Assembly: GCA_965204535.1 (NCBI GenBank)
Contig: CBDBEV010000001.1
Span: forward strand, 2,112,001 to 2,176,000
From: a bacterium
GTDB lineage: Bacteria > UBA8248
Direction: 5' to 3'
DNA: 64,000 bases
Each line of letters begins with the position of its first letter. The stretch's first letter is position 1. Of the stretch, positions 38,478-43,750 are shown in pieces. A program made the translations under genes and the position numbers. The notes beneath the pieces were generated by a model, which was given only the letters and a program-made list of their open reading frames with translations, did not search any database and was not told where the DNA came from.

Positions 38478-39334
38478 TGGGCGGGGAGGCCCGCCCGCGT
38501 TTTCTCTGCGCTCAAAACCCCCTTGAATCAGCGCGCGTCGCTCTGCTGGGATGTCCTTTCGATAAGACGGCGAGCTTCAGGCGCGGCGCACGTTTTGGGC
38601 CCGACGCCGTCCGGGAAGCGTCCGATTGTCTGGAAACCTACAGCCCGCATCTGGATAAGGACCTGGAAGACGCCGCCCTGTGCGACTTAGGCGACGTTGA
38701 TTTTCCATCGGACGATACCGCAGTTGTTCTCGATTCCATCAAGGCCGAGGCCTCACGGGTATTTCAGGCGGGCAAGCGCCCCATATTCCTGGGCGGGGAG
38801 CATCTGGTGAGCCTGCCCGCCGTGGAGGCGGCGCTCGGCGTCTACCCCGGTCTGGCCGTGTTCCAGTGGGACGCCCACGCGGATTTGAGAGAGGACTATC
38901 TGGGCGTGAAACTCTCGCACGCCTGCGTGATGCGGTGGGTTCTCGATTTGGAGGATGTCGGCCTGCTTCGCCAGTTCGGCGTCCGCTCGGGCACCAGGGA
39001 GGAATTCGAATGGATGCGGGCGAACGACACGCTCCGCCCCCTGAGCCCGGAGGCCGTATCGGCAGCGCTCAAGGAAACGGGCGATAGCGCCATATACCTC
39101 ACGGTCGACGTGGACGTCGTGAACCCGGGCGAGATGCCCGGCACCGGCAGCCCGGAATCCGGCGGCCCCGGGCTTGATGCGCTCATCGATTGCATCTCGG
39201 CCCTGAACGATTCGGGCGCGCGCATCGTCGGCGCCGACGTGGTGGAACTCGCCCCCGAGTGGGATCCCTCCGGCGCGAGCGCCGTCGCCGCCGCGAAGCT
39301 GGTGCGCGAACTCGCGCTGGTGATGGGGGCGTGA
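38477..39334 (+). CDS. speB: Agmatinase
   Basis: GARFGP, GGEH, DAHAD, DVDV, PGTGSPE. Confidence 0.92.
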   Translation: MGGEARPRFLCAQNPLESARVALLGCPFDKTASFRRGARFGPDAVREASDCLETYSPHLDKDLEDAALCDLGDVDFPSDDTAVVLDSIKAEASRVFQAGKRPIFLGGEHLVSLPAVEAALGVYPGLAVFQWDAHADLREDYLGVKLSHACVMRWVLDLEDVGLLRQFGVRSGTREEFEWMRANDTLRPLSPEAVSAALKETGDSAIYLTVDVDVVNPGEMPGTGSPESGGPGLDALIDCISALNDSGARIVGADVVELAPEWDPSGASAVAAAKLVRELALVMGA

Positions 39335-39352
39335 GGGGGCGAAATTTTCCTG

Positions 39353-39381
39353 TTGACGAAGACTCGGAACAGTGGCATAGT
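39353..39381 (+). promoter_or_regulatory. Sigma70-type promoter of the small RNA-NYN unit
   Basis: TTGACG, 17 nt, CATAGT with an extended -10 TG; same spacing in the second copy. Confidence 0.65.
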
Positions 39382-39387
39382 TTTTTC

Positions 39388-39449
39388 ACTACTCCCCCAG
39401 TGGTTTCGACCGCTGGGTGCGGGGCCTCTCATGAGGCCCTGCTTTTTTT
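39388..39449 (+). ncRNA. Candidate structured small RNA (hairpin plus terminator) upstream of the NYN gene
   Basis: CCCAGTGGT-TTCG-ACCGCTGGG, then GCGGGGCCTC-TCAT-GAGGCCCTGC-T7. 44/49 identical to copy 2, with a compensatory change. Confidence 0.6.
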
Positions 39450-39458
39450 AGGTAAGAC

Positions 39459-40082
39459 ATGCGGACTTATATCTACGTCGATGGATTCAACCTCTACTAC
39501 CGCTCGCTGAAGCAAACGCCGTTCAAATGGCTTGATCTTTCCGGGCTGTTTCGTGACGTGTTGAAGCCCCACCACGATATCCTCAAAATCAAATTCTTCA
39601 CAGCGCGCGTCTCGGCGCGGCCTAACGATCTATCTGCACCGCAACGCCAGGACACTTATTTACGAGCGTTAAAACACTATTGCCTGGAGGTTGAAGTTTA
39701 TTATGGGCATTTTCTGACGCATAAGATTCAAGCGCCGCTTGCCGATACCGGCAACAGGCGAAGGCTGGTGAATGTCGTCAGGACCGAGGAGAAGGGATCG
39801 GATGTCAATCTCGCCGTTCATCTCCTGAACGATGCATGGCTGGATGACTACGACTGTGCGGTAGTAGTTACGAACGACAGCGATATCGCAGAGGGCATGC
39901 GTCTTGTGAAAAAGCACAAAAGAAAATGGATTGGACTGGTAACACCCGGCACGAGTCATCCGTCTCGAGAGTTAATGACCCATGCGGACTTCTCCCGTCG
40001 AATTCAAAAGAGTGCGCTGCGAAAGAATCAGCTTCCGTCCCCGATTCCGGGCACCAACATCACCAAGCCTGCCAACTGGTGA
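39459..40082 (+). CDS. NYN/LabA-DUF88 PIN-like ribonuclease domain protein
   Basis: YVDGFNLYY, EEKGSDVNLA...DA, TNDSD acidic active-site motifs. Confidence 0.9.
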   Translation: MRTYIYVDGFNLYYRSLKQTPFKWLDLSGLFRDVLKPHHDILKIKFFTARVSARPNDLSAPQRQDTYLRALKHYCLEVEVYYGHFLTHKIQAPLADTGNRRRLVNVVRTEEKGSDVNLAVHLLNDAWLDDYDCAVVVTNDSDIAEGMRLVKKHKRKWIGLVTPGTSHPSRELMTHADFSRRIQKSALRKNQLPSPIPGTNITKPANW

Positions 40083-40117
40083 ATTCGGTTGACTTCCGTT
40101 GCTGGAACGCCCGCCCT

Positions 40118-40174
40118 GAGCGCCGCCGCCTCGAAGATAGTCCGCGAACTCACGCTCGACATGGGGGCGTGAGG
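40118..40174 (+). repeat. Degenerate copy of the speB 3' end
   Basis: Reads SAAASKIVRELTLDMGA* versus speB SAVAAAKLVRELALVMGA*; identical ATGGGGGCGTGAGG. Confidence 0.85.
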
Positions 40175-40175
40175 C

Positions 40176-40538
40176 ATGGACAAAAAAGAACTCATCGGTT
40201 TCTGGGCGCTGGCGCTCCTGTGGCTGCCGGCCGGGCTGATAACAACCGCAGTCGTGCGATTTGGCGCACAGCCCGGGTTCTGGATGTCGATACCGATGGC
40301 GATGTTGTCGCTGGTGCCGGTCGCGCCCTGCGGCCTGCCGCTGGCGCTGGGGTGCCGGTGGCTGTGGCGGCTGGGCTACCGCCGCGATGCCTGGACGGCG
40401 GGGGTAATACTGGGCACGGTCACGGTGGCGACATCGCTGGTGGCGGGACTGCTCGGCCCGGTCGCCATCGCCCTCTTCGCGGTGGTCTTAAGCCTGCCGG
40501 TCTGGGCGGCGTCCTGGTGGCTCGCGCGGCGGGGGTGA
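40176..40538 (+). CDS. Small hypothetical membrane protein (~4 TM)
   Basis: Hydrophobic 120-aa ORF. Confidence 0.7.
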   Translation: MDKKELIGFWALALLWLPAGLITTAVVRFGAQPGFWMSIPMAMLSLVPVAPCGLPLALGCRWLWRLGYRRDAWTAGVILGTVTVATSLVAGLLGPVAIALFAVVLSLPVWAASWWLARRG

Positions 40539-40563
40539 GGACGGAGAGAGGAGGTATTGCGGC

Positions 40564-42187: not shown

Positions 42188-42235
42188 GCCGACGTTACAG
42201 AGGCGATGTGGAACGGGAGGCTTCTTTTTCTCTGT

Positions 42236-42330
42236 TTGACGGATGCTCCGGATAGCGGCATCCTGATTCTCACTCCCCCGGTGGCTTTGACCGCCGGGTG
42301 CGGGGCCTCTCACGAGGCCCCTACTTTTCT
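42236..42330 (+). ncRNA. Second copy of the promoter plus structured small RNA
   Basis: TTGACG, 17 nt, CATCCT; CCCGGTGG-CTTTGA-CCGCCGGG; GGGGCCTC-TCAC-GAGGCCCC-TACTTTTCT. Confidence 0.6.
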
Positions 42331-42440
42331 AAAAATGGTATTTGGGATGAGAGAGCAGGCGGTTTCCTGGAAGCCGGTTTTCTATTATATTTGACCTAAT
42401 ATACAATAAAGTCGACTTGAGGCCGAAGAGGGAGAAAGCA

Positions 42441-42632
42441 ATGAATCAAGTTGCTGAAAATGATGAACTTATCGCACGTATGAAGAAAGCGGCCCAGCGA
42501 TCGATGACCCCCGAGGAAAAAAGAGCGCAAAGGATATCTTACATTCTCTCCGTGGTCGGCAGAGATGATGATTCGACCAAGAAGGAGGTTGAGGATTATA
42601 TTGATGAGCGTTACGGGAACACGTATGAATGA
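42441..42632 (+). CDS. Small antitoxin-like protein (type seen upstream of Fic genes)
   Basis: RMKKAAQRSMTPEEKRAQRISYI; RBS GGAG; ATGA overlap with the next remnant. Confidence 0.55.
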   Translation: MNQVAENDELIARMKKAAQRSMTPEEKRAQRISYILSVVGRDDDSTKKEVEDYIDERYGNTYE

Positions 42633-42733
42633 TCTTGTACGAACTTATAAGGAAACTCCTGAGCATACAGATAGCGAATCATTAGGGAATTTGTAGACTA
42701 CGCCGCCAGATATTCTCACCAAAACCGTTTTCC
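42629..42733 (+). pseudogene. Decayed 5' remnant of a coupled gene (possibly a Fic toxin)
   Basis: Starts MILYELI at the ATGA overlap and hits an early stop; the Fic assignment is recalled similarity only. Confidence 0.35.
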
Positions 42734-42757
42734 ATTACCAAGCCCGCCAACTGGTGA
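42734..42757 (+). repeat. Copy of the NYN gene 3' end (ITKPANW*)
   Basis: ATTACCAAGCCCGCCAACTGGTGA versus 40059-40082 ATCACCAAGCCTGCCAACTGGTGA (22/24, both changes synonymous). Confidence 0.85.
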
Positions 42758-42763
42758 TTTCCC

Positions 42764-43498
42764 CTAACCCCCCTCTGCCTCCACGGCTGCGGCCATCTCG
42801 CCCATCGAGAAGAACACGAAGTCGGTCGTCGGCATGTTCTCGACCTTCTCCGTCGCCCCCCAGCTTCCACCCTCGGACAGCCTCTGGCGGTCGATCCAGG
42901 CGTTGGCGAGGCCGAACCGGTTCGCGGGCGCGTGGTCGTGGCGCAGGCTCTGCGCCGTGTGGAGGATGTCTGCGCGATCGAGTCCGAAATCCGATTTCAG
43001 GTGCGCCAGGAGATACTCGAAGTTGGCGTCGGCGGGCTTGTAGGCGCCGATGTCTTCTGCGGTATAGACGGCGTCGAACGCGACGCCCAGCTTCTTGTTC
43101 GAGGCGGCGAAGCCCTCGCGATGGACGTTCGAGAGGATGACGAGCCTGTAGCGGCGTTTCAGGACCCGCAGCGCGTCCGCGGTATCTGCGAACGCGGGCC
43201 AGAGCGGCACCGATGCGCCGAACGCCTCATCGAGCGCGTCTCTCGTCTCAATGCCCAGACTCTCCGCCATACTCCGGTGGACTTTTGCGAGGAGATCGGG
43301 GTAGCGAAGCCCGGGCGAGGCGTGCTCGTGGTGGGCTTCCCACTTGGCGAAGGCTGTGAGTGCGGCCTCGCGCGTCACAGCCGCGCCGCCGCCCTCCATG
43401 ATGAGCGGCTGCAGCGCATCCCAGATGCCGGTCTCCCAGTCGATGAGGGTGCCGTAGCAGTCGAACGTGAGTACGCGGTAATCGGTCAGTCGGGCCAT
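42764..43498 (-). CDS. HAD-superfamily hydrolase (haloacid dehalogenase type II-like)
   Basis: FDCYGTLIDW, LSN, YKP, QSLRHD. Confidence 0.9.
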   Translation of the reverse strand: MARLTDYRVLTFDCYGTLIDWETGIWDALQPLIMEGGGAAVTREAALTAFAKWEAHHEHASPGLRYPDLLAKVHRSMAESLGIETRDALDEAFGASVPLWPAFADTADALRVLKRRYRLVILSNVHREGFAASNKKLGVAFDAVYTAEDIGAYKPADANFEYLLAHLKSDFGLDRADILHTAQSLRHDHAPANRFGLANAWIDRQRLSEGGSWGATEKVENMPTTDFVFFSMGEMAAAVEAEGG

Positions 43499-43607
43499 GG
43501 TTCCGGTTTCCTGTGCGGGGGGATTCGGTTTCCTTTTTTCGGCCGGGCCTGCGTTTGTTCGATCAAGGTTTCTATGGCCGCGGGCGGGAGGTGTCAAGGG
43601 CCGCGCC

Positions 43608-43675
43608 CCGGCGTGAGCGACGCCCAAACCGCAGCGAAGATAGTCCGCGAACTCACGCAGGTGATGGGGGATGAG
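43608..43675 (+). repeat. Degenerate copy of the speB 3' end
   Basis: Reads AAKIVRELTQVMG; shares the exact 24-mer CGAAGATAGTCCGCGAACTCACGC with the 40118 copy. Confidence 0.85.
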
Positions 43676-43677
43676 AT

Positions 43678-43750
43678 ATGGACAAGCAAGGACAAACTGG
43701 CTTCTGGGCGCTGGCACTTTTGTGGCTGCCAGCGGCTGTGGCGGCTGGGA
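43678..43750 (+). pseudogene. Internally deleted paralog of the membrane gene at 40176-40538
   Basis: MDKQGQTGFWALALLWLPA joined directly to GGCTGTGGCGGCTGGG (LWRLG segment). Confidence 0.75.

Follow-up and report, generated by a model that had tools for sequence, protein, structure and literature searches.

The gene array described here lies behind speB, an agmatinase gene, in the 4.56-Mb genome of an uncultured bacterium (G000; 95.7% complete). The window is the whole 64,000-nucleotide stretch that was analyzed, C2:2112001-2176000 of that genome, in which speB is the final gene of a speD-pdaD-speE-speB cluster. A first-pass annotation, made from the sequence alone, had described repeated gene capture at the speB stop codon, with copies of the speB 3' end between the captured units. 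Repeated gain at this point was borne out by the present analysis, in that units of 0.8 to 2 kb varied between relatives and no local recombinase was detected. The closest speB loci were labelled "bacterium" or Nitrospinota, and related alleles occurred in runs labelled sponge metagenome (X4, share 0.40); the host is therefore likely to belong to a sponge-associated, Nitrospinota-related lineage.

Copies of the speB 3' end and their cargo

Two direct copies of the speB 3' end were detected, at 40111-40174 (79% identity over 67 columns; E, 1.2e-9) and 43608-43670 (79% over 63 columns; E, 8.9e-9), close to the positions first proposed for them (40118-40174 and 43608-43675). Self-comparison of the whole 4.56-Mb genome gave no further speB-end match, and a weight-matrix scan ranked these copies second and third among 9.1 million sites. 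The direct repeats flanking the speB insert are longer than 30 bp and unique in the genome (63 to 67 columns, with just three strong copies in 4.56 Mb), and the second and third copies are alike over 135 columns, extending into the start of a membrane protein gene designated M. Both strong copies begin at -64 of speB, the positions of such gene-end copies, or stubs, being given as nucleotides (nt) upstream of the gene end. Contigs from runs X1 and X3 span both copies with zero differences, indicating that the copies are not assembly artefacts; these runs may be the source samples of the genome. Both ends of contig C2 match C1:194838-203713 at ~100%, so that part of the G000 assembly is present twice.

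A weaker copy had been reported at 41446-41489. It was located at ~41431-41487 with a matrix score of 17.8, against 0.014 such sites expected in 6.6 kb, and its significance alone was limited (P of about 0.02 to 0.03 against real intergenic windows and shuffles). Support came from relatives: at the same position, G012 and G016 carry clearer decayed copies (score reached by 0 of 3,000 controls), G002 carries a weak copy (P, 0.014), and in G034 speB itself lies directly 5' of the same higBA unit. A further candidate at 42203-42220 was rejected; its P values were 0.44 and 0.51, a single orthologue reached about 0.04 to 0.05, and the segment is merely in register with the speB/leader junction. Identity along the array runs 79%, about 59%, not detectable and 79%, which gives no age order.

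The 43608 copy meets the region upstream of the HAD hydrolase gene at a 5-nt stretch shared with speB. It may be the trace of a larger event in which the entire NYN-to-HAD block came to lie before a resident speB-M allele; such an insertion would account for the lack of an age order among the copies. The M remnant behind this copy is closer to the M gene of G011 (0.88) than to that of G000 (0.80), and a vestige of the copy in G011 aligns within an 880-bp block (P, 0.16 when taken alone). Similarly, the second leader has 0.89 identity to the distal leader of G034, compared with 0.76 to 0.80 to the first leader of G000.

Table 1. Features of the array behind speB (positions in the window)
Feature	Position	Strand	Evidence or remark
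speB, agmatinase (arginase family), intact anchor	38477-39334	+	Pfam Arginase, E 8e-69
speB 3' end, segment recurring downstream	39270-39336	+	Self-comparison
Promoter-like sequence and two-hairpin U-tailed leader, travels with NYN	39345-39446	+	-38.2 kcal/mol, z -4.6
NYN-domain ribonuclease gene, PADLOC HEC-09 match	39459-40082	+	Pfam NYN; HEC-09, E 6e-41
Displaced speB 3'-end copy closing the NYN unit	40111-40174	+	E 1.2e-9
Gene M, 120-aa membrane protein, no family	40176-40538	+	Directly 3' of speB in G013, G010, G031, G032
EEP-family nuclease/phosphatase gene, paired with M	40564-41412	+	Pfam
Heavily decayed speB 3'-end copy before higBA	41431-41487	+	P about 0.02-0.03; clearer in G012, G016
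higB-higA toxin-antitoxin pair (higB 41588-41860, higA 41879-42187)	41588-42187	+	Pfam HigB-like toxin, HTH
Second, older NYN leader	42226-42328	+	Recurrence of first leader
63-aa open reading frame, 3' remnant of Fic gene and 3' remnant of older NYN gene (29 nt, 42733-42761)	42441-42761	+	
HAD hydrolase gene	42764-43498	-	At the site in 18/23 genomes
Displaced speB 3'-end copy and M-allele remnant	43608-43749	+	Self-comparison
81% copy of the 3'-terminal 124 nt of a tauD-like gene	43739-43862	+	Source gene now at G000 C2:703215-704123
tauD-locus cargo: ankyrin gene (43910-44845, +) and two open reading frames (minus strand) without assigned family	43910-45865	.	

The identities first given to the NYN, EEP, HigB, HTH and ankyrin genes held. 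The accompanying claim that each copy precedes a cargo unit was only partly upheld, as the ankyrin gene follows a stub of a different gene and the fourth delimiter is the nonsignificant segment at 42203-42220; the original cargo list had also omitted the HAD gene, the 29-nt NYN remnant and the Fic remnant. The Fic gene is whole in G017 and G031. Open reading frames (ORFs) at the speB site were scanned against Pfam: 16 proteins of the window, another 46 proteins (most of them among the 97 cluster representatives) and 25 out of a further 41 ORFs. Within the window, these scans revealed no recombinase or transposase and no restriction-modification (RM) gene in the speB units.

The NYN unit is ~840 bp long, and the NYN gene is likely to be the newest small unit of the array. 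The HEC-09 candidate reportedly conferred no protection (10.1101/2024.01.29.577857). Gene M matched no Pfam or PADLOC family. Paralogues of M with ~55% identity are present in G000 at C2:1693368, C1:193577 (= C2:2966631) and C1:833222, and a second M-EEP pair lies at C2:1.693 Mb.

A conserved two-hairpin U-tailed leader sits between a sigma-70-like promoter and the NYN genes, both in the window (39345-39446 and 42226-42328) and at L310:1386-1440 and L317:1432-1493. It persists after loss of the NYN gene in several genomes, and in G007 and G001 it precedes an NYN gene at another locus too; those genes have no flanking gene-end repeat within 1.5 kb. No Rfam family was assigned (best E, 0.79, below gathering), and no account of the leader was found in the published literature. 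Attenuation is one possible role of the leader, and action as a small antitoxin RNA is another.

The distal end of the array has a separate history. At C2:703 kb, the tauD-like source gene of G000 now precedes citrate synthase. An M24 peptidase gene lies within ~2 kb of tauD in at least 13 relatives, whereas in G000 and G002 it is found behind the speB region. The speB and tauD loci were therefore joined by an inversion, with 43739-43862 marking the breakpoint, which is common to G000 and G002. The tauD stub is a second, independent gene-end stub, and the ankyrin gene is cargo behind that stub and not a speB cassette. The ankyrin gene and the two minus-strand ORFs are absent in G002 and are skipped by a contig of run X5. 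These two ORFs are AT rich (44871-45865), share a 99-nt stretch with 67% similarity and are likely paralogues. G010 carries its own tauD stub, 4.8 kb downstream of tauD.

The speB site in related genomes

The site was compared in 23 genomes of the genus, G000 included, all of which have speB as a single copy (E ≤ 1e-60). The content behind speB was variable, and the distance from the speB stop codon to citrate synthase ranged from 236 bp (G001) to 23.2 kb (G010), the intervals of G017 and G005 stopping at contig edges. The leader and NYN gene were directly behind speB in 10 of the 23 genomes: in seven the unit was whole with its closing copy, in two it was internally deleted and retained the copy, and the last was G011. 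Besides G000, the closing speB copy was present in G002, G016, G012, G003, G014, G018, G017 and G005 and was partly overwritten in G011. An empty site, in which speB is followed directly by M, was found in four genomes (G013, G010, G031 and G032), which represent other species of the genus and not strains. The remaining nine genomes differed in content: other genes came first behind speB in four (G006, G004, G008 and G034), and the five HAD-less sites held nothing, an RM pair in G007 or, in G033, an NYN remnant.

Across the genus, cargo at the site included NYN, higBA, Fic, HEPN, STAND, PD-T7-3-like, Sir2-HerA, RM and metallo-beta-lactamase-fold genes. RM-type genes were found at the speB site in G007 and G010 and in one other unit of G000. 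In G010 a 22-kb defence island (C4:1077108-1099300; L044, L053) lies between M and HAD and carries AAA-DUF4143, Sir2-HerA, type III RM-like and inverted higBA genes; no tyrosine recombinase was detected in it. A locally built tyrosine-recombinase profile (positive control, E 1e-57, with a control that overlapped the training set) gave zero matches in the 91,150 bp of speB-to-citrate-synthase intervals of the 23 genomes. The Pfam scans likewise revealed no recombinase among the speB-site ORFs that they covered, and serine recombinases were addressed solely through these scans of part of the ORFs.

Two sister genomes contain events distinct from those of the window. G008 has a speB stub spanning -99 to -53 and a further decayed copy past M. 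A two-flank duplication was also present in G008, between +1765 and +5372 from the speB stop codon (L043), with the order M end, STAND NTPase unit, leader, HAD 3' end and then M end again with a second interval allele. In G034 the higBA unit matches the unit in the middle of the G000 array, ends at the equivalent of 42221 and is joined to a speB copy spanning -184 to -2 (about 185 nt) across a 3-nt shared stretch. The left boundaries at speB thus differ by event (-64 for both G000 copies, -99 in G008 and -184 in G034), each with different cargo.

The G034 allele also provided information on which copy is foreign. Upstream of the repeat, G034 speB has 0.88 to 0.94 identity to that of G008. Between -185 and -95, the displaced copy retains 0.90 identity to G008, compared with 0.76 for the intact gene. 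By this comparison, the working speB gene of G034 ends partly in foreign sequence and its old end sits downstream.

Gene-end stubs across the genome

The genome-wide check proposed with the first-pass annotation was positive. Among 3,095 G000 genes, the last 60 nt were repeated in downstream intergenic DNA in 18 and upstream in 0, with downstream controls of 3 (middle of the gene), 4 (120 nt before the end) and 1 (start). With a second pipeline and 4,011 called genes, the 3' end was copied downstream in 21 genes (26 pairs) and upstream in 1 (P, 1e-5); internal segments gave 5 and 6, and 5' ends were copied upstream in 6 and downstream in 3. Five of the 21 stub genes are doubtful, one anchor being itself a recombinase and four being uncertain or likely mobile ORFs.

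Units bounded by stubs were 0.5 to 7.3 kb long, with left boundaries from -45 to -531 and gene/copy identities of 72 to 99%. The right boundary of homology was within 20 nt of the stop codon in 21 of 26 pairs, only a lower bound having been imposed, and 6 of the 7 pairs with at least 90% identity ended within 10 nt of it. No 6-mer was common to more than 5 of 20 junctions. The anchors include def, a thiolase gene, a pdh-like gene, pduO, methylmalonyl-CoA mutase and transporters. Cargo, identified from scans of 96 of 122 ORFs plus 21 further scans, comprised doc, MNT-HEPN, relBE, AbiEii, an RM methylase, ParA and metabolic genes, with an IS256 fragment in one unit. As the first-pass annotation had suggested, recombinases were sought elsewhere in the genome, and 42 tyrosine-recombinase matches were detected; the nearest to speB is ~200 kb off, and none lies inside the stub units except the recombinase anchor.

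Variation between alleles was seen at several of these anchors. Downstream copies of the def end occur in 14 of the 21 relatives having the gene, with boundaries from -36 to -130. At the pdh-like gene (-81 to -241) and the thiolase gene (-104 and -152), empty alleles occur alongside filled and multiply filled ones, and the boundaries differ. In G000, def (peptide deformylase; C1:785371-789096, L056) is followed by three 3'-end copies around a ricin-lectin gene and doc-type toxin-antitoxin genes. The G000 amidohydrolase gene (C2:2801280-2805501, L071) is copied at both ends, the 3' end downstream and the 5' end upstream, and each of the two copies flanks a small unit.

Gene and copy were compared in seven further cases. 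The displaced copy keeps the relatives' end for G000 amidohydrolase, for G000 and G012 pduO and for the G016 frsA-like gene. For G000 amidohydrolase and pduO, it retains the relatives' last codons and downstream sequence; for the G016 frsA-like gene, its identity to relatives is 0.92 to 0.96, compared with 0.90 to 0.92 for the gene. These comparisons have partly shown, for several events, that the resident allele persists in the displaced copy and that the intact gene ends in newcomer sequence.

The rate of stubs in G000 (21 genes in 4.56 Mb, or 4.6/Mb) was set against small samples in which hits were uninspected and genes were called by a simple script of our own: G001, G026 and G034 gave 1, 3 and 1 in 0.4 Mb each (5 in 1.2 Mb), and Escherichia coli K-12 gave 2 in 0.8 Mb. 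Loci centred on speB from other phyla and from other members of the Nitrospinota (0.24 Mb in all) gave no stub. The proposal that this lineage is unusually stub rich is not supported, as the G000 rate is similar to those of relatives and E. coli. The E. coli K-12 (W01) gene-end repeats lie at C1:716720-721199 and 737889-738927. A dedicated speB-specific capture system is not supported; the integron-like, speB-specific reading of the first-pass annotation gave way to a scar found behind 21 unrelated genes, with boundaries from -45 to -531, no common motif and an ordinary rate.

Origin of the units and relation to known systems

The geometry, the empty and differently filled alleles, the separate events with their own boundaries, the absence of a local recombinase and the scar at about 20 other genes were all observed. 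We consider it reasonably probable that they reflect serial insertion with long target duplication, likely by homology-anchored recombination with one illegitimate joint; among the origins first listed for the array, homology-anchored recombination that stacks alleles gives the best fit. Incoming DNA with the speB end and neighbouring genes of a relative would pair with the conserved end of the resident gene, presumably through RecA-type pairing at the anchor. The donor's downstream genes would enter, and the far side would close by an illegitimate joint inside the resident gene end, so that speB would be kept whole and its old end displaced downstream, where it would decay. Uptake may have been by natural transformation, and the same product could come from a circularised fragment taken in by a single crossover or from a linear one that bridges sister chromosomes. 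Relatives diverge past the stop codon; homology should therefore stop there and leave the left boundary free, which matches the observed pattern. Selection could account for the position of copies at gene ends, as the gene would survive only there. A finished unit could then spread between species via ordinary double crossover in its flanks, and deletions could trim it.

Several observations weigh against this reading. The shared stretches at the two joints with known donor-type continuation are short (5 nt and 3 nt) and may be due to chance. No clean donor allele for NYN, with cargo behind speB and certainly without a copy, was identified. Both comEC and dprA are present in G000, but of 14 control genomes 10 also matched comEC and 11 matched dprA, and competence is thus not proven. 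Homology-facilitated illegitimate recombination is rare in the laboratory according to PMC5361080. The G034 gene and its copy are 0.95 identical over the last 95 nt, and the donor/resident split, clear in G034 and at gene tips and partial in three further events, was mixed or absent for lactonase, G031 pduO and the G000 frsA-like gene. The shared -64 boundary of both strong G000 copies is what a fixed crossover site would give. Of 227 gene/copy differences, 48% fell at third codon positions, compared with ~46% roughly expected for in-place duplication, a result that is neutral between donor origin and ageing in place. Finally, the G014 thiolase repeat spans 60 nt of lineage-specific intergenic DNA, as in-place duplication predicts.

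These last points bear on the alternatives. Duplication in place, in which the cell mends a break close to the stop codon by taking in foreign DNA and copying its own gene end, or in which a local tandem duplication is later trimmed and partly replaced, with subsequent allele exchange making gene and copy diverge, is unlikely as the general explanation and possible for some events. The codon-position pattern fits its expectation of ageing, intergenic DNA is included in the thiolase repeat of G014 and in a G000 repeat of 99% identity, the G008 duplication involves both the M end and the HAD end, and double-strand breakage was suggested for RM cases by Furuta et al. (PMC2853133). It does not predict a resident copy and a foreign gene over about 90 nt in G034, homology that ends at the stop codon in most recent pairs or a second leader and M remnant resembling alleles of other lineages; moreover, Ku was not found in the 95.7% complete genome. 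One old tandem duplication of a speB end-NYN-M block, followed by replacement, would give the rough colinearity of the two halves (leader, NYN end, speB copy and M) and had been offered as an alternative at the outset. It is highly improbable, given that G034 and G008 hold independent copies differing in boundary and cargo, that the self-copy offsets are unequal (2881, 2675 and 3503), that the site is empty in four genomes and that the scar is present at many other genes; the G034 allele refutes it as the sole explanation.

A site-specific origin was also considered, in which islands with integrases entered an att site within the 3' end of speB and later lost those integrases, leaving attL/attR copies, or small units were moved in trans, as in the tandem accretion of cis-mobilizable elements (CIMEs). 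The geometry is the same, with a regenerated gene end and a displaced old end (PMC5704250), the common -64 start is in keeping with it, and the 42 tyrosine-recombinase matches elsewhere in the genome could act in trans. However, neither a tyrosine recombinase nor a remnant of one was present in any of the 23 intervals or among the ORFs scanned, and the profile gave no integrase-bearing parent element at the site in any of the 23 genomes. Boundaries vary at speB, def, the pdh-like gene and the thiolase gene where a fixed att core was expected, and ~20 specificities for unrelated genes would be needed, with junctions that have no common motif. We regard this origin as quite unlikely. Unconventional circularizable structures excise as a circle via their flanking repeats. 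The search for circular junctions, joining a unit end back to its start, gave none among the joints listed (15 of 45); contigs drop rare variants, so this does not show that circles are absent.

Insertion with long target duplication was reportedly described by Nobusato et al. in 2000. The speB stretch has its structure, apart from the RM cargo. As in the cases of Furuta, Abe and Kobayashi (2010; PMC2853133), the insert is below 20 kb and has no mobility gene, the direct repeats are long (>30 bp), variable and unique to the locus, and the site is empty in relatives. In those cases the repeats often span the start or stop codon, the gene stays intact, and most are from naturally competent species. 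They concerned RM genes and single events, with breakage of DNA by the cargo proposed, whereas here the cargo is mixed (NYN, toxin-antitoxin, membrane and metabolic genes), the insertions follow one another at the end of a single housekeeping gene, and the data bear on which copy came from outside. No published account of such serial insertion at a housekeeping gene, with cargo of mixed type, was found in the literature covered, which was partial, and the supplements to PMC2853133 may list serial cases.

Resemblances to other arrays were more limited. Arrays of type VI secretion system (T6SS) effectors and Rhs proteins, attributed to homology-facilitated illegitimate recombination (Kirchberger et al. 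2017; PMC5361080), also have a conserved upstream anchor, new modules beside it, older content pushed downstream, no integrase and spread by ordinary recombination. Those arrays involve replacement of the old effector, orphan immunity genes and toxin-immunity selection; here the housekeeping anchor's own end is duplicated and the cargo is unrelated. CIMEs resemble the speB units as integrase-less tandem units at a gene 3' end between target copies, but they derive from integrase-bearing elements with a fixed att core (PMC5704250); here no such element was found and boundaries vary, and the speB stretch is probably not a CIME array. Transformation merodiploids of Streptococcus pneumoniae provide a tested route, in which one linear donor strand bridges sister chromatids and yields a tandem duplication; they differ in needing pre-existing repeats, in duplicating 100 to 900 kb and in having no foreign cargo (PMC3784515). 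The speB stretch is not an integron. Integrons have IntI, palindromic attC sites and the newest cassette usually nearest the fixed point. The newest unit near a fixed point and the toxin-antitoxin and defence-type cargo are alike, but the spacers seen here are locus-unique host gene ends and not palindromic attC sites, and no IntI over the cut-off was found in G000 (best TIGR02249 score, 85 bits; cut-off, 265).

Variable spots between core genes are usually credited to integrases or to allele replacement, and neither accounts for growth of a spot. The 23 genomes document the stepwise, integrase-free enlargement of one spot, from about 240 bp up to 23 kb, and in at least one event the copy of outside origin is recognizable. 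The basic phenomenon is already published and the rate in G000 is not unusual. The likely cause of the pattern, recombination of incoming DNA at a gene end with no integrase, is a route of gene gain that is known but has been little surveyed. A simple stub scan makes this additive route countable in any genome. More tentatively, integrase-free addition at gene ends may be a general and largely uncounted route of gene gain, in which the several stubs per megabase would each record the capture, anchored by homology, of genes that neighbour the anchor in a relative. Toxin-antitoxin and defence hotspots could then build up where one housekeeping gene end is used again and again, and the order of arrival, the donor and the recipient might be read from the stubs.

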